From the IMG/VR virus record IMGVR_UViG_2534681662_000012: a DNA stretch of 6,205 bases, one strand, 5' to 3'. Below the pieces are notes generated by a model. The model did no database searches. It saw only the letters and a list, made by a program, of their open reading frames with translations, and had not been told where the DNA came from. Position 1 is the stretch's first letter; every line of letters starts with the position of its first letter. The translations under genes were made by a program, and so were the position numbers. Positions 194 to 5,852 of the stretch are shown here, piece by piece. The DNA is from a virus. Its lineage: Duplodnaviria; Heunggongvirae; Uroviricota; Caudoviricetes.

Positions 194-811
194 TTACCCA
201 AGCACGCCAGTTGCAAAGGCGTGATCAAGAAAACGAAAAATTAAATCAACCTGAGAACCATGCATTTCTTCGAACGCCAGCGGATCCGCATGAAGCTCGT
301 TGTGATGCTCCCGACACAGCGGTAGCGTGAAAATATCGTGAGATTTTGTCCCCATTCCGCCCTGACCATGACCAATCAGGTGATGGGGATCGTCGGCTGG
401 CTTACCACAACACGCACACGGCTGTGTCTTCACCCAGCGTGTGTATTTCTCGTTAACCCAGCGGCGACGTTTAGGTCGTTTCATGAAAGATTCCGGAGAC
501 TCCGGATCTACGGCAATGCTGACCACCGTCTTTTCCTGTGGTGCGTTCTGTTGCTGGTGGACGTGAGGCAGCGGCGCAAGATTTTTTGTGCGCTGTTTCA
601 GTATGCTGGTGGCGGTCTGCTCTCCCGGTACGATGTCGCTTTCGCGGTACACCGAGCGGATTTTTTCCGCACGCAAGCCCAGCGAACGACGTAATACCGC
701 TTCCGGTAGCGCGTCCGCCACCTGATTGCGGACCGCCCACCAGGATAATTCAGCCAGAGATAATTCACGCTCCTGCGTACCGCTTATTGCGTGACCGATG
801 ACGTCAATCAT
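194..811 (-). CDS. Cys/His-rich lambdoid-prophage protein, DUF968/YdfU-like C-terminal region (205 aa from the internal ATG)
   Basis: Track ORF 194..1021, trimmed to the internal ATG at 811..809 (MIDVIGHAISGTQERELS...). The upstream 70 codons (MLLVVLGHCLTGCCAILNPASGHTAIII...) are Cys/Thr/Ala-rich, look non-protein-like, and overlap a better frame. The C-terminal block WVKTQPCACCGKPADDPHHLIGHGQGGMGTKSHDIFTLPLCREHHNELH is a Cys/His metal-binding-type motif that I associate with the DUF968 family; this is recollection, not a search result. Stop TAA at 196..194. Confidence 0.6.
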   Translation of the reverse strand: MIDVIGHAISGTQERELSLAELSWWAVRNQVADALPEAVLRRSLGLRAEKIRSVYRESDIVPGEQTATSILKQRTKNLAPLPHVHQQQNAPQEKTVVSIAVDPESPESFMKRPKRRRWVNEKYTRWVKTQPCACCGKPADDPHHLIGHGQGGMGTKSHDIFTLPLCREHHNELHADPLAFEEMHGSQVDLIFRFLDHAFATGVLG

Positions 812-1241
812 CCATGCTGACAGTTTTGATGAGCAAGTTGCCGAGTGATTCGGATGTCTGGTCACGCAGCTGGTTGTCGCAGTGCCAGCACAACACCATT
901 GCGCCGGTACCATATCGGTGAATAACGGTTTCGCTGTGATGATAATCGCCGTGTGGCCACTGGCAGGATTTAATATGGCACAACAGCCAGTCAGACAGTG
1001 CCCCAGCACCACCAGCAGCACGAATCACCCGCTCATCGCTGAAAAATGGCAGTAATGATTTATCCTCCGCCAGCGGCTGGCGAACAGCAGGAACGACTCC
1101 GGACGGCAGACCGCGCATGCTTTTCGGTTCCGGCTCCACCAGAACTCGAGGGTTATGAAATACCTGCATGGATTCACGGCCCGGTTTTAGCACCACCAGC
1201 CCAAGTTCCGGTACCGGAACAGGTCGAAGTAACACCCGCAC
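804..1241 (-). CDS. Hypothetical Cys/His-rich prophage protein (145 aa); possibly the N-terminal part of a split YdfU-like gene
   Basis: Track ORF 804..1241. Start is GTG at 1241..1239, preceded by GGAGG (tctGGAGGtaacGTG on the minus strand) that overlaps the TAA stop of the upstream ORF at 1245..1243. The product ends ...CQWPHGDYHHSETVIHRYGTGAMVLCWHCDNQLRDQTSESLGNLLIKTVSMDD. Its TGA stop (806..804) overlaps the ATG of the next ORF (811..809), giving minus-strand ATGATTGA. Confidence 0.55.
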   Translation of the reverse strand: MRVLLRPVPVPELGLVVLKPGRESMQVFHNPRVLVEPEPKSMRGLPSGVVPAVRQPLAEDKSLLPFFSDERVIRAAGGAGALSDWLLCHIKSCQWPHGDYHHSETVIHRYGTGAMVLCWHCDNQLRDQTSESLGNLLIKTVSMDD

Positions 1242-1688: not shown

Positions 1689-1844
1689 TTACTCCTCAGG
1701 TTCGTAAGCTGTGAAGACAGCGACCTCCGTCTGGCCGGTTCGGATTCGTACCTCGCAGAGGTCTTTCCTCGTTACCAGTGCCGTCACTATGACGGTTAAA
1801 CAGATGACGATCAGGGCGATTAACATCGCCTTTTGCTGCTTCAT
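1689..1844 (-). CDS. hokD: Hok/Gef-family type I toxin, HokD/RelF-like (51 aa)
   Basis: The internal ATG (1844..1842) of track ORF 1689..1901 gives MKQQKAMLIALIVICLTVIVTALVTRKDLCEVRIRTGQTEVAVFTAYEPEE. I recognise this as the Hok family (single TM helix, then the conserved RKDLCEV.IRTGQTEVAVF block) and, from memory, as identical or near-identical to E. coli HokD (RelF). SD AAGGAG sits 9 nt upstream. The 19-codon in-frame N-terminal extension in the track ORF was not adopted. Confidence 0.85.
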   Translation of the reverse strand: MKQQKAMLIALIVICLTVIVTALVTRKDLCEVRIRTGQTEVAVFTAYEPEE

Positions 1845-2116
1845 AGCCTGCTTCTCCTTGCCTTTCGGCACGTAAGAGGCTAACCTACATGTGTCTAGCA
1901 TGAAATTGGCCTCAGATTAATGTTAAGCGTCTTGCAGGACGCGTAATGTTAACTGGGGCTTTTCTCTATCTGCCCTTGGTGTTCATGCCCGAGGCAGATA
2001 GCCTCAAGCACCCGCAGCCATTCTACTTAACTACCGTTACCTCGCCAATATGAAATCAGTCAGAAAGACGATCCATAAGAACAATAGCAAGATTTCTTAA
2101 TGGAGATGGATGTAAG

Positions 2117-3604
2117 CTAAATATTTTGGCTCGGTCTGCTTTCTATTAAATGCAACCTGTATTTTAAAGCATGATGTGTCCTAAACTCATTTTGTAGATT
2201 AATTTTTAAGTTAGGCAAACTACTTACGTATTCCCATCTACCTTGTTTTTTTTGTCCGATAAGTGAGTTATCAAACAGGAAGTTGATATATTGACGTATC
2301 ACCCCATCAGAAATACCTGCAAATTCATTACGGCACTTCTCGGAAAAATCATTAAAATCGAATGTTTCTACTTGGATAGTTTGAAGAACAGTTAGTAAGT
2401 TCTCAATTTCAGGGAATTGGTTGGACCATTCATCAATCACCTCATTGTACACACTTATAGATGCTTCACGGTCAGCTTCATAAAGCTCATTGGAAGTGTA
2501 AAGACCTGAGACATTATTTTTATGACATGCCCTAATTTTGTTGAAGTAGACAATAATATCCCTAGGCCTAAAGAAAGAACGGCGACATATATATTTAAAT
2601 GGAGGAGTCCCCTGCCTAACGAATGAAACCTCAAATACTTTCCCAGATCTGTCCTTTTCGTCATCTAATATGAGATCATTAGGTTTGTATTTCTTTATCC
2701 TCTCATAATACATATCGTTTAGATTATTTTCATTCCATGAGATTATGATAGCACTATCTTGCAATAATTTGTTTTTATCATTGAATTTCAAAGAATGATA
2801 AATATCCGTTCGTAGGAAGGGAATGACTTTTAATTTATCATTGAGGCGTTCATCAGATGCTATGTTTCTACAGACATTTAGCAGATTTATTAAAACCTTA
2901 CTATATTCTTCAATTTGCCCCTCTAGCCAGTTTTCGTCTAATTGGTCAAGGGCGATAATTATTTTTTCATTACCAATGTTATCTTTAAAAATTTTTTCAA
3001 AATACGTAAGCAACGTGAAAGCATTAGCTCTTAGCTTTTGCTTTAGCTGAGCATTCTCAGCAACTTCCTCTAACGAAATTTCACCTGCGTCCAATGATAC
3101 TTCATTAAGACCAGCACTGGGCCCTTTTATGGTTTTTAATCTGGTTATTTTTGAAAACAAAACCTCCCTAAGAGTTGGGTCGGGACTACCAAAGATAGTT
3201 TTGATATAATTATGTGCCCACGTTAGATCTTTGTTTAAAGTCTCTCCAGCATCATTTTTTATTTCAATAAGTTTAGATAATGCCTTAATATAAAAAAGAT
3301 ACATCCAACTTTTTTGATAAGCGGAAAGTTCTCCAGCCATTGCATCCTTGTAAAGTTGATGGGCTGGCCATGGATAGTCACTAAAATTTAGACATACTGA
3401 GTAAAACCCGTTGAGATTGGCTGGGTTTCCTCTTCTAAGGTGTTCATAAATGGCTGTTTTACCAGTACCTTTTCTTCCAAGAACCAACCAAGCCCTACTT
3501 TCAATAATATCCTTTATCGCCGGTAGCTTAAAAAAATAGGTCTGTAAGTCCCGATCTGTTTCTGCTGAAACTTGAAATTCTGGTAGCCAGTCTCTAATGT
3601 CCAC
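2117..3604 (-). CDS. P-loop NTPase, 495 aa, STAND/KAP-like motif pattern; AT-rich horizontally acquired gene; candidate phage-defence/abortive-infection protein
   Basis: Track ORF 2117..3604; an uninterrupted 495-codon frame in an otherwise AT-rich segment. Walker A WLVLGRKGTGKTAIYEHL near residue 40; Walker B-like IIALDQLDENW near residue 220 (hhhhD-x-hDE, as in STAND/NACHT-type NTPases; the roughly 175-aa A-to-B spacing is more like KAP-type). In-frame start is GTG at 3604..3602 with SD AAGAGGA about 4-5 nt upstream. G+C in hand-counted 60-bp lines is about 27-35%, against about 57% in a flanking backbone line. Confidence 0.85.
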   Translation of the reverse strand: MDIRDWLPEFQVSAETDRDLQTYFFKLPAIKDIIESRAWLVLGRKGTGKTAIYEHLRRGNPANLNGFYSVCLNFSDYPWPAHQLYKDAMAGELSAYQKSWMYLFYIKALSKLIEIKNDAGETLNKDLTWAHNYIKTIFGSPDPTLREVLFSKITRLKTIKGPSAGLNEVSLDAGEISLEEVAENAQLKQKLRANAFTLLTYFEKIFKDNIGNEKIIIALDQLDENWLEGQIEEYSKVLINLLNVCRNIASDERLNDKLKVIPFLRTDIYHSLKFNDKNKLLQDSAIIISWNENNLNDMYYERIKKYKPNDLILDDEKDRSGKVFEVSFVRQGTPPFKYICRRSFFRPRDIIVYFNKIRACHKNNVSGLYTSNELYEADREASISVYNEVIDEWSNQFPEIENLLTVLQTIQVETFDFNDFSEKCRNEFAGISDGVIRQYINFLFDNSLIGQKKQGRWEYVSSLPNLKINLQNEFRTHHALKYRLHLIESRPSQNI

Positions 3605-3921: not shown

Positions 3922-4344
3922 TCACTTAAATAGATACCGAACATTTCCCTGATAAAACGACAATATGCGCTGCATAACTTCGCTCTTCTGGCACTCGCGA
4001 CAGATTATGTTTAGACGACTGTCGTAGCGACGTATTTCTCCATCAGGTAGTGACCAGATAAGGTCCGGATCAACCACAGCGGGTTTCTTCACCTTCGCCC
4101 TAGAGAGTTTTTTGCGGGCATTTTGCCAGTCCTTTCGTGCCTGTTCAGACGGGAATAACCCGTAGCCGGAGTTGTATACATAACCACTGGCAACCAGCTC
4201 TCTGGCAAGAATGCTCATCAGATATCTTGTCGCACCTGTTTTAGCTTCCAACTGTCGTAATGTCTCGCGACCGCTCTGGCGCACAAGTTCGACCACCTGC
4301 TCTTTAATTTTTTCCCGCTCTTCCTGTGTAAAAACTTTTGCCAC
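3922..4344 (-). CDS. Hypothetical prophage protein, 140 aa
   Basis: Track ORF 3922..4344. GTG start at 4344..4342 with a strong SD AAGGAGG 4 nt upstream (ttAAGGAGGacttGTG on the minus strand). Backbone-like G+C. The product (MAKVFTQEEREKIKEQVVELVRQSGRETLRQLEAKTGATRYLMSILARELVASGYV...) is basic and could contain an HTH, but I do not recognise a specific family. Confidence 0.65.
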   Translation of the reverse strand: MAKVFTQEEREKIKEQVVELVRQSGRETLRQLEAKTGATRYLMSILARELVASGYVYNSGYGLFPSEQARKDWQNARKKLSRAKVKKPAVVDPDLIWSLPDGEIRRYDSRLNIICRECQKSEVMQRILSFYQGNVRYLFK

Positions 4345-4384: not shown

Positions 4385-5350
4385 TTATCCCCTGAAACCA
4401 GGCGGAATTTCTGTATCCGGTTCAGAAATATGATTCACACAACGCTGTACAGGTGAACGTCCCAAGCGGATGACCAGTTCGTCCCATTTTTCGCGGAGTT
4501 TTGACGGGCTCATGATGTTTTTTACCCAGAATGGATCTCGCTGTACCCGACCAAACATTTCGCAAATTTGTCTGTGGCTTCTGCCATCCAGCATCCGCAT
4601 TGTGCGCACGTCATTGGCCCAGGCTGTCCAGTTAGGCTCTTTTGGTCGCATGATCTCTCCATCGTCGCTGGCAGCCTGTTCGTAAAGGTTCACGATCCGC
4701 CCCCAAATCCACTGCGCACACGCCAAATCCTCCCTGCTACCCCACTGGCGTTTTTTCGCACTAAACACAACCGCGTCGGGGTTCTGGGTTAAAAAATCCT
4801 GTTCAGCGGTCTGCGGGTCCGGTTGCGAAGCTTCCGGACGAAAAGTGTTTTTATTCTCTGTAGTAATCTCTGTTGTATTCTCTGTAAGATCATCAGGCCA
4901 TTTTGACCCGATGACATTGGGTCGTTTTGAACCAATGGAGCGTTTCATTTTGACCTCTTCCATCGTGTCATTTTGACCTGATGGAGCGGCGCATTTTGAA
5001 CCGATGGATTCGTTCAATTTGCCACCATCTAAAAGCTCGCTCCCATAGTTGATCGTGTAGAAATTGGTCATATCGCGCTTTGATTTATTGAGCTTTTCAC
5101 AACGCAAAAGCCCCAGCGTTTTCAGACTTGCAAACGCGCGCTTTAAAGTTGACTCTGACCAGAATGGGAACTGTTCCAGCCATTGTTCCGTTGTGTTGTA
5201 AATCCAGCGAACACCATCACATTCCATGCCGGAATTGGTATCTCTCAACCAGTAATGCAACTGCTGCAACACAATGGCTTCATTTAAGCCAATCTTCATC
5301 GCAAGCTGTGTGTTTATAACCAGTGGGCGTTCAGCAAAAAGAAGGCTCAT
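4385..5350 (-). CDS. Phage replication initiator (lambda O-like / replisome organiser) with an internal origin
   Basis: Track ORF 4385..5404. The track start at 5404 is TTG with no SD, so I prefer ATG at 5350..5348 (weak GGATGG SD), which overlaps the upstream ORF stop by about 20 nt; the start remains uncertain. The N-terminal region looks like a winged-helix DNA-binding domain; the middle is encoded by iteron repeats (repeated SIGSK / VIGSK peptide); the C-terminal domain is Trp-rich. An internal ori is the hallmark of O-type initiators. Confidence 0.7.
   Translation of the reverse strand: MSLLFAERPLVINTQLAMKIGLNEAIVLQQLHYWLRDTNSGMECDGVRWIYNTTEQWLEQFPFWSESTLKRAFASLKTLGLLRCEKLNKSKRDMTNFYTINYGSELLDGGKLNESIGSKCAAPSGQNDTMEEVKMKRSIGSKRPNVIGSKWPDDLTENTTEITTENKNTFRPEASQPDPQTAEQDFLTQNPDAVVFSAKKRQWGSREDLACAQWIWGRIVNLYEQAASDDGEIMRPKEPNWTAWANDVRTMRMLDGRSHRQICEMFGRVQRDPFWVKNIMSPSKLREKWDELVIRLGRSPVQRCVNHISEPDTEIPPGFRG
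4898..5012. repeat. Iteron array (putative prophage origin of replication) inside the initiator gene, with an adjacent A+T-rich short-repeat tract at 4841-4890
   Basis: Five direct repeats of about 18-20 bp with 23-24 bp periodicity. Plus-strand copies start near 4900 (attttgacccgatga), 4924 (gttttgaaccaatgga), 4948 (cattttgacctcttccatcg, degenerate), 4968 (cattttgacctgatggagcg) and 4992 (cattttgaaccgatggattcg); consensus CATTTTGA(C/A)C.GATGGA. Immediately downstream in gene orientation is the tract 4851-4888 with three copies of tctctgt(a/t) (ttattctctgtag, taatctctgtt, tattctctgtaag). Confidence 0.6.
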
Positions 5351-5852
5351 AATTCCATCCAGCTTTTTGTTGGTATTGCTGTCGATACGCAAGTTTGAAA
5401 GCAATTGCTTTTTCTATAAGTTCGTCAGTTTCACGATCCACTACGGCAGGATCAGCAAAAAGCAGTCCGGACTCCACCACATCGCCATATTCTTTGTTTA
5501 ACCCGGCGATCATGTACGTGATGCTTTTTCCGTCACTAATTTCACGATACAACCTGAAATCATTAATCCGGATAGCCTCCATAATTGCAGGCACTAGCGC
5601 CGTGAACTTTTCACGCTTATCCCTAGTGTCGATAGCCTTCCAGCGTTCGAATATCTTCACTCGATTAACGCCAAGCGCTCGCTGATCAACCGCGCCACCT
5701 TCATCTGTGACACGCTGAACATCGATGTTCGGGCGCTCTTTCAAAGCCCAGAATGCTTCAGTGATTAATATCGTCGCCTGCTCCTGTGTCATTCCTGGTC
5801 GACATATCCAGGCATCCAGAGCCTCACGAGCCTGTTCAGGAGTGATTTTCAT
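5331..5852 (-). CDS. Hypothetical prophage early-region protein, 173 aa
   Basis: Track ORF 5331..5852 with ATG start at 5852..5850 and backbone G+C. The product (MKITPEQAREALDAWICRPGMTQEQATILITEAFWALKERPNIDVQRV...) is not recognised by me. Its start lies 37 bp from the IS1 left end. Confidence 0.65.
   Translation of the reverse strand: MKITPEQAREALDAWICRPGMTQEQATILITEAFWALKERPNIDVQRVTDEGGAVDQRALGVNRVKIFERWKAIDTRDKREKFTALVPAIMEAIRINDFRLYREISDGKSITYMIAGLNKEYGDVVESGLLFADPAVVDRETDELIEKAIAFKLAYRQQYQQKAGWNYEPSFC

Follow-up and report, generated by a model that had tools for sequence, protein, structure and literature searches.

A phage initiator gene with a block of phased repeats in its middle raises the question of whether these repeats matter as DNA, as the site where replication starts, or only as the peptide they encode. 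The gene lies on the minus strand of a 6,205-nucleotide stretch from a Caudoviricetes virus (IMG/VR record IMGVR_UViG_2534681662_000012), and this whole stretch is referred to as the window. We hold with good confidence that positions ~4850-5029 are the cis-acting replication origin of an mEp460/HannyBb-type lambdoid prophage, located in the linker-coding middle of its own initiator gene. The gene and its parts are listed below.

4385-5350, minus strand: initiator gene, 321 amino acids, ATG at 5350 (list of open reading frames (ORFs) and profile matches)
5030-5350, minus strand: coding region of the N-terminal domain (N-domain; residues 1-107), a putative winged-helix origin-binding domain (AlphaFold2 (AF2) model, sub-threshold profile matches)
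5007-5029: iteron 1 in gene order, degenerate; core 5012-5024, GTTCAATTTGCCA, centre 5018 (sequence reading; relatives have a good iteron here)
4984-5006: iteron 2; core 4989-5001, centre 4995; TCCATCGGTTCAAAATGCGCC on the gene strand, encoding SIGSKC
4961-4983: iteron 3, the best conserved; core 4966-4978, centre 4972; 23-bp dyad CATCAGGTCAAAATGACACGATG; second frame, PSGQND
4938-4960: iteron 4; core 4943-4955, centre 4949; the core alone is kept and the flank is inverted; third frame, EEVKMK
4915-4937: iteron 5; core 4920-4932, centre 4926; dyad CATTGGTTCAAAACGACCCAATG
4891-4914: iteron 6, closest to the 12-mers; core 4896-4908, centre 4902; dyad CATCGGGTCAAAATGGCCTGATG
4850-4885, minus strand: three 12-mers in exact period, the proposed strand-opening/helicase-entry site (Tandem Repeats Finder (TRF), repeat search)
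4469-4840, minus strand: coding region of the lambda-O-like C-terminal domain (C-domain; BLASTP; predicted local distance difference test (pLDDT) of the AF2 model ~66-83 over residues 180-297)
4388-4450, minus strand: C-terminal tail VQRCVNHISEPDTEIPPGFRG, resembling the last 21 residues of E. coli DnaT (PDB chain matches)

Six phased repeats, five clear and one degenerate, occupy the middle of the gene, with centres at 4902, 4926, 4949, 4972, 4995 and 5018 and a spacing of 24/23/23/23/23 bp. In TRF the period-23 array spans 4925-5008 (3.7 copies, score 70), and a repeat search recovers 23-nt families spaced by 24/23/23/23 bp. The iterons share a conserved core of 13 bp, an imperfect dyad that reads GGTCAAAATGACC on the gene strand, and the units at 4961-4983, 4915-4937 and 4891-4913 form 23-bp dyads with 8 of 10 arm matches each. 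The core YTTTGAMC occurs five times in the window, always on one strand (4901, 4925, 4948, 4971 and 4994) and never outside the iterons. Since 23 is not a multiple of 3, the iteron is read in all three frames, and the five clear copies translate as SIGSK, PSGQND, EEVKMK, SIGSK and VIGSK. A repeated peptide at three copies is thus a by-product of one DNA unit read in different frames.

A first-pass annotation of this DNA had described five iterons at about 23-24 bp spacing, built on the 17-mer CATTTTGAMCNGATGGA and producing a repeated SIGSK/VIGSK peptide. Its periodicity, and the tandem-repeat search it proposed as a check, are borne out by both programs. The five clear copies stand, but the total is six, as the degenerate copy at 5007-5029 reaches past position 5012, where the block had been ended. 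The 17-mer does recur: with up to three mismatches it matches four times (4899, 4923, 4969 and 4992, all on the plus strand) against a chance expectation of 0.10, and none of 200 shuffles gave four matches. The conserved unit is nevertheless the GGTCAAAATGACC dyad rather than the 17-mer register, and the copy at 4946 keeps the core only. Likewise, the SIGSK/VIGSK peptide is found at three copies, but not at the other two clear ones. Scans with CATTTTGAMCNGATGGA and YTTTGAMC found no second iteron cluster elsewhere in the 6.2-kb window.

On the gene strand, the iterons are followed by three 12-mers, ACAGAGAATACA (4885-4874), ACAGAGATTACT (4873-4862) and ACAGAGAATAAA (4861-4850), whose family consensus is ACAGAGANTACW. 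The array begins 17 nt from the centre of iteron 6. TRF places a period-12 array of 2.7 copies at 4855-4886, and TCTCTGT is present three times in the window (4855, 4867 and 4879) against 0.56 expected. With a GC content of 27.5%, the tract is the least stable 40-bp stretch of the gene (-45.6 kcal/mol, compared with a window-wide mean of -54.9, standard deviation 5.1). It is 65% pyrimidine on the plus strand, so that the coding strand is purine-rich. The encoded TE(N/I)T repeat (TENTTEITTE) is kept in homologues. The A+T-richer tract with three tctctgt copies reported by the first-pass annotation is therefore real and low in GC, but it is better described as a conserved, sequence-specific 12-mer array, which is not found in lambda, P22 or phi80.

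Other identities for the 12-mer were considered. It has no resemblance to a DnaA box or to an IHF or Fis site when compared by eye with consensus sequences, and no RNA family matches the tract. Each unit does contain a CTG site for primase, which would leave the conservation in Firmicutes unexplained. An exact-string literature search with the 12-mer and the encoded peptide found no paper.

Constraint on the repeats across relatives

We compared codon positions among 18 non-redundant collinear homologues with 72-99% nucleotide identity. Conservation at third positions is 0.69 over the N-domain coding sequence, 0.87 over the iterons and 0.98 over the 12-mers, and the corresponding values for first and second positions are 0.93, 0.89 and 0.91. 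The usual coding signature is present in the N-domain, gone over the iterons and reversed over the 12-mers.

Codon use was then examined in arrays set by peptide pattern alone, ([TSPA]E.[TS]) repeated two or more times, in genes found by protein similarity. Every one of the 102 12-mer units has NCA as its first codon, a four-fold degenerate site for which the ACA background is 25%, and every one has GAG (background 45%); the third codon ends in T in 101/102. The sole free base is position 8, which switches the amino acid among N, I, T and S. Each of the 8 N-domain clusters shows this NCA/GAG/NNT invariance, among them Firmicute genes of 33-35% GC, where GAG has a background of 0.21-0.29. The first two units of Firmicute arrays stand 11 bp apart, and the first is translated in a different frame (ACC AGA GAY TWC); one Paenalcaligenes gene has 12-mer units in all three frames. 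Together, these comparisons indicate that selection over the iterons and 12-mers acts on DNA rather than protein.

To describe the family, we collected 92 non-redundant genes from protein-seeded loci (one genome per species) and from pattern-seeded viral contigs. They share a common plan on the coding strand: an N-domain coding sequence of ~320 nt, then 3-7 iterons (typically 5-6), and then 2-5 12-mers. Of the iteron spacings, 259 are of 23 bp, 39 of 24 bp and 16 of 22 bp. The last dyad centre lies 15-18 nt from the array, and a second mode of this gap is longer by one period. All three defining features of the family, namely N-domain homology, iterons at 22-24 bp and two or more 12-mers, are present in the window, whose 17-nt gap falls inside the family mode. 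The iterons themselves are lineage-specific dyads (GGTCAAAATGACC, GGGCAAATTGCAC, GGACAATTTGTCC, TGGCGGAAAGCGCCA, TGCAGGAAACCTGCA and others), and the GGTCAAAATGACC type is seen from E. coli to Staphylococcus and Fructilactobacillus. An exact-pattern scan with the triple 12-mer matched at least 120 viral contigs, one match each. In 79/80 fetched loci the array lies in a constant frame inside an ORF of 250-480 amino acids, and no array was found on the opposite strand in 412 kb of related loci.

The array travels with the N-domain and not with the helicase-recruiting half of the protein, since 77/81 N-parts of array-bearing ORFs fall into one BLAST cluster, the window and a Stx2-phage O gene included, while the C-parts belong to at least five unrelated families (all-against-all BLAST). 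The O gene of Stx2a phage Stx2_14040 (locus L003, 2486-2680) has unrelated GGGAAAAC-type iterons and four copies of the 12-mer. Its iteron/12-mer boundary is 97.5% identical to the window over 40 bp, and downstream lies a helicase/replication-protein module of DnaB/DnaC type. The presence of 12-mers beside other iterons and another module makes the array a module junction in lambdoid phages as well.

This raises the possibility that the array is kept mainly as a recombination linker, across which the N-domain with its iterons is exchanged against C-domain and helicase modules. Homology with Klebsiella phages begins at 4855, what the window has in common with Stx phages is confined to 4852-4891, and at least five C-domain families are joined to one N-domain family exactly at the array. 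However, exchange would not account for 12-mers that are the same to the letter in phages of Proteobacteria and of Firmicutes with N-domains only 40-55% identical, nor for the fixed phase to the last iteron and the exact 12-bp (sometimes 11-bp) period. We therefore regard a mainly recombinational role as unlikely, although linker and unwinding roles of the 12-mers are not exclusive and can coexist.

Some relatives depart from the consensus array. At the equivalent position, Thermoanaerobacter has AACAAATATAAAC repeats of 14-15 bp and Acinetobacter has CAAGAGAATAC; the array is degenerate in Pseudomonas luteola and missing in several relatives from Bacillus and Neobacillus.

Homologues that lack the repeat block while conserving the protein had been named in the first-pass annotation as a finding that would speak against an origin. 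Such genes formally exist as rare natural variants of 290 amino acids (P0016-P0022; locus L286, 1680-1760), in which 31 codons are missing, that is, 93 bp or 24+23+23+23. The junction TCCATCGG|GTCAAAATGG points to recombination between iteron 2 and iteron 6, with four units lost in frame, and these variants may be origin-defective prophage copies. The 93-bp deletions resemble the classical in-frame ori- deletions of lambda. As exact iteron-to-iteron losses are the expected outcome of tandem iterons, they are not counted against the origin.

The initiator protein and related origins

The initiator matches phrog_391, 'replication initiation O-like', at E 1.2e-92, with residues 35-339 of the longer ORF aligned to positions 11-298 of the 298-position profile. 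In its AF2 model, residues 102-175, which are encoded by the origin, are predicted to be disordered and lie between an N-domain resembling a winged helix-turn-helix (wHTH) and a helical C-domain.

For the N-domain, no Pfam or NCBIfam family was found, and Pfam matches at E<=10 are noise alone, compared with 5.7e-36 for lambda O against PF04492 (Phage_rep_O). Alignment of the N-domain with that of lambda O by hhalign gives a probability of 0.1. Weak, sub-threshold winged-helix matches are found to Cdc6_C, PadR and DnaD_N, the last weakly and in 2/21 members (best E 0.12), and the predicted secondary structure is wHTH-like (pLDDT ~60-74). The best Foldseek matches of the low-confidence model (pLDDT 54) are PDB 4pql and 5kbj (E 0.16, probability 0.97-0.98, target TM score 0.48), the N-domain and the Rep-DNA complex of RepA from staphylococcal multiresistance plasmids; this fold match is weak, and RepA has no sequence similarity to the N-domain. 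Residues 66-67, where the predicted third helix begins, change together with the variable base of the iteron, GG[T/A/G]CA, a correlation that is suggestive only, as n=20 and phylogeny is a confounder.

The N-domain family is very large: a 50%-clustered library contains 10,312 representatives at E<=1e-3, and 4,538 at the stricter E<=1e-10. Many representatives are 400-880 amino acids long and contain two copies of the domain (e.g. P0126, P0129, P0131 and P0147). Plasmid matches are mostly phage-plasmid-sized or prophage-borne, and Firmicute relatives are labelled 'DnaD-like' in PHROG and GenBank. Searches by tblastn with the E. coli and Lactobacillus N-domains reached phages of S. aureus, Bacillus, Listeria, Vibrio and Bacteroides, and found no phage with a characterised origin.

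The C-domain of lambda O binds P. The C-domain of the window is homologous to it: BLASTP aligns residues 147-294 with lambda O 135-270 at 34% identity over 148 residues (E 4e-28), and the two domains cluster together in the all-against-all BLAST.

Beyond the C-domain lies a short tail. PDB DnaT chains 2ru8, 6aep and 9zbt match initiator residues 301-321, and this is the sole match in PDB sequence searches with the initiator; the NCBIfam DnaT model aligns to residues 320-339 of the longer ORF, scoring 16 bits where its cut-off is 201. E. coli DnaT (primosomal protein I) ends in ..VNTVSEPDSQIPPGFRG and the initiator of the window in ..VNHISEPDTEIPPGFRG, a close match over the final 21 residues, whereas the rest of the initiator is unrelated to DnaT. 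As only the tail matches, mEp460 records that carry the label 'Primosomal protein I' are over-annotated. Homologues retain the tail even where the residues before it are unrelated, and it is found in 46/159 family members, all of them from Enterobacterales, Pantoea or viral contigs. A recognisable loader or helicase gene lies downstream in 3/40 loci with the tail and in 34/72 loci without it, in a limited reference set of non-independent loci. The tail looks like a mobile motif for recruitment of the host primosome. In DnaT, the C-terminal domain docks on PriA, and the extreme tail is given no role there (PMC13377028).

The layout is that of ori-lambda within gene O, which is shared by 434, 933W and P27. 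In both, the origin lies in the middle of the initiator gene, and the peptide it encodes is a linker. Four to six dyad iterons with a central A-tract stand 20-24 bp apart (lambda 39034-39118, annotated at spacings of 20, 24 and 23 bp), and an A/T- and purine-rich tract 3' of the iterons is followed by the homologous C-domain coding sequence. The differences are that the N-domain of the window belongs to a family other than PF04492, that the iteron sequence is unrelated, that the lambda tract has loose ACAAAAGA-type repeats and one CAGAGAAT instead of a phased 12-mer array, and that in the window a DnaT-like tail takes the place of a following P gene. The first-pass term 'lambda-type' thus fits the architecture and the C-domain, but not the N-domain or the missing P gene.

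The gene-internal layout is also seen in P22, where gene 18 has GGTAAAAC iterons and then ACAAAAGACAATAT repeats, and in phi80, where gene 15 has four annotated gp15 sites and then a purine-rich tract. Unlike in the window, a DnaB-type helicase gene follows in P22, and a gene annotated as similar to lambda P follows in phi80. The lambda origin has been mapped, the P22 origin is annotated by similarity to lambda, and the phi80 origin is annotated from gp15-binding sites. The comparison with lambdoid origins that the first-pass annotation called for therefore returns the same layout in all three, but a pattern scan found no ACAGAGANTACW array in lambda, in the P22 ori region or in the whole phi80 genome; at the corresponding place these phages carry looser purine-rich repeats (ACAAAAGAC...). 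Rac oriJ was rejected as a family member, because YdaU is a DUF1376 protein without 12-mers or 23-bp iterons and shares the tail only.

More distant parallels are DnaA-trios beside DnaA boxes, and the 13-mers of RK2 oriV that are read strand-specifically by TrfA/RepE. They share with the window short tandem repeats at a fixed distance from the last double-stranded initiator site. In such DNA-unwinding repeats the sequence, beyond A+T content, is constrained, and the initiators read them as single strands (PMC10797057). The initiators are however unrelated (AAA+ DnaA; WH1-WH2 Rep), the units differ in length and sequence, and the putative element in the window lies inside a coding sequence. The window also has the general features of an iteron-type theta origin, with tandem same-strand sites, an adjacent tract and an initiator in cis.

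Proposed mechanism and alternatives

The first-pass annotation had placed the prophage origin inside the initiator gene, and the layout, the C-domain homology with lambda O, the constraint at the DNA level, the 92 relatives and the predicted disordered linker all point the same way. We propose a model for initiation at this origin. Dimers of the N-domain would bind the iterons, whose constant 23-bp phasing would build an O-some-like complex and stress the adjacent duplex, which would open in the 12-mer array. The array is probably read specifically, most likely as one single strand, because it is sequence-invariant and co-inherited with the N-domain family. The host helicase would probably be recruited through the lambda-O-like C-domain and the DnaT-mimicking tail, since the gene is not followed by one of P, DnaC-like or DnaB-like type. 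The origin is traversed by transcription from the immunity region, as in lambda.

That the 12-mers are invariant while the iterons vary speaks for the N-domain having a second, conserved way of recognising DNA. Lambda O binds A/T-rich single-stranded DNA (PMC7466680). It is tempting to speculate that the ACAGAGANTACW array is a universal, sequence-specific opening and helicase-entry element of this large initiator family, that the N-domain reads one of its strands irrespective of iteron specificity, which would make the array the phage equivalent of the DnaA-trio in hosts ranging from Enterobacteria to Firmicutes, and that in Enterobacterales the host helicase is loaded without a phage loader via the DnaT-mimicking tail. 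We offer this extension tentatively, and consider it possible rather than likely.

The 12-mers might alternatively act through the transcript. A purine-rich RNA with repeated ACAGAGAAUACA could form an R-loop on the pyrimidine-rich template and aid opening or priming, which would be the basis of 'transcriptional activation'. In keeping with this, the array is always on the purine-rich coding strand, 3' of the iterons, and the coding strands of lambda, P22 and phi80 are also purine-rich at this point. Such a mechanism would need a purine bias, however, and not an invariant sequence at 11 of 12 positions, and no RNA family matches. We thus consider it improbable.

A slightly slimmer chance is given to the iterons being binding sites for autoregulation, copy control or exclusion, by titration or handcuffing, with replication starting elsewhere in the prophage. 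Plasmid iterons also have control functions, cloned lambda ori fragments inhibit incoming phage (PMC3349717), and the initiation site proposed here is predicted from sequence layout. Invariant 12-mers fixed at 15-18 nt from the last iteron, at the stability minimum of the gene, are nevertheless the signature of an opening site and not of an operator; the layout is the one seen at the mapped lambda origin and at the annotated origins of P22 and phi80, and the window has no other iteron cluster.

That the repeats exist for the protein, as a repeated peptide or flexible linker (SIGSK..., TENTTEITTE) with no role of the DNA in cis, is scarcely credible and already contradicted by the data: the region is coding, a peptide repeat is visible at three iterons and TE(N/I)T is kept in homologues, but the 23-bp unit is read as SIGSK, PSGQND and EEVKMK, the codon-position signature is lost over the iterons and reversed over the 12-mers, four-fold sites are invariant in 102/102 units while the free base alters N/I/T/S, Firmicute units stand in other frames, and the segment is predicted to be disordered.

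Several observations weigh against a functional origin of the kind proposed. The 12-mer tract is just ~1.8 standard deviations below the mean stability, and the window has less stable stretches elsewhere, in an ATPase gene. Confidence in the AF2 model is low (mean pLDDT 54), the N-domain does not belong to the lambda O family, and iteron binding is suggested by a weak winged-helix similarity. About one quarter of N-domain relatives, mainly from Bacillus and Neobacillus, have no recognisable array, and counts over relatives are phylogenetically non-independent. Rac YdaU (DUF1376; L287 3120-3977, K-12) bears the tail (..SLPDSAIPPGFRG; ..SEPDTEIPPGFRG in the window) together with a DnaC-like neighbour, so that the tail behaves as a mobile motif and need not replace a loader. 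The prophage copy in the window may be defective. Literature searches found no paper on this origin or its N-domain family, and an earlier description in a review (Weigel & Seitz 2006) is possible.

There is nothing unusual about a lambda-like origin within an O-like gene. What goes beyond it is a distinct and very large N-domain family without a Pfam model, a phase-locked invariant 12-mer array, and a DnaT-mimicking tail that would replace P. The analysis pinpoints the probable origin and initiator specificity of a prophage type present in 1,956/5,426 complete E. coli genomes, where the gene is labelled 'hypothetical' or 'replication protein O' and the origin is unannotated. Unwinding regions of phages and plasmids are usually treated as A+T-rich DNA with lineage-specific repeats, whereas the 12-base element here does not vary at synonymous sites across phyla, even though the iterons beside it and the C-domains joined to it vary freely. 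Because synonymous recoding separates the role of the DNA from that of the protein, opening of DNA by a non-AAA+ initiator becomes directly testable. The DNA signature of 23-bp iterons plus (ACAGAGANTACW)n would also let origins be annotated in thousands of prophages.

Genomic setting

The window corresponds to the early-right part of a lambdoid prophage of E. coli, and the genes listed for it all lie on the minus strand. Apart from the initiator, the following features were assigned.

5331-5852, minus strand: cII-like/YdaT-family gene (ORF list and profile matches)
3922-4344, minus strand: DUF977/Ren-like gene (ORF list and profile matches)
2117-3604, minus strand: low-GC gene for a Sll1717-family P-loop ATPase (ORF list and profile matches)
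1839-2013, minus strand: sok antisense RNA (Rfam, 116.6 bits)
1689-1901, minus strand: hok, Hok/Gef ORF (Pfam, 3e-23)
194-1241, minus strand: DUF968/HNH genes (ORF list and profile matches)

The entire window aligns to many E. coli chromosomes at 98% identity, and the origin segment 4830-5040 gave the genome count above, BL21 included. For the initiator gene, identity is 99% with phage mEp460_ev081 and 97% with both HannyBb and PhiR42_1. The same 966-nt coding sequence is annotated in mEp460_ev081, and the initiator is called 'phage replication protein O' in RefSeq. The ORF extends to a TTG at 5404 if the longer start is taken. The ATG at 5350 sits 20 nt inside the upstream cII-like/YdaT gene, the stop of which is at 5331-5333, an overlap that points to translational coupling. 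The prophage has an immunity region of RacR/YdaS/YdaT type, yet the initiator is unrelated to YdaU of Rac.

Downstream of the initiator come the DUF977/Ren-like gene, the Sll1717-family ATPase gene and hok, as also in mEp460_ev081 and mEp460_4F5. Profile matches of these neighbours revealed no P-type helicase-loader, DnaC-like or DnaB-like gene 3' of the initiator in the window. The ATPase (495 amino acids; NCBIfam, 2.9e-74) is encoded in a markedly A+T-rich island between the replication genes and hok, where DNA stability is the lowest in the window. Its gene has the look of an acquired moron and is possibly a defence gene. In the annotation of mEp460_ev081, the gene at this position is on the opposite strand and differs in length.

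The hok/sok toxin-antitoxin locus at 1689-2013 is complete. At the low-numbered end of the window, ORFs 804-1241 and 194-1021 overlap in different frames, and each matches part of one family: the former corresponds to positions 1-138 of 334 of phrog_96, an HNH endonuclease, and the latter to DUF968. This arrangement suggests a frameshifted or split DUF968/HNH gene, or an over-extended GTG start of the second ORF.

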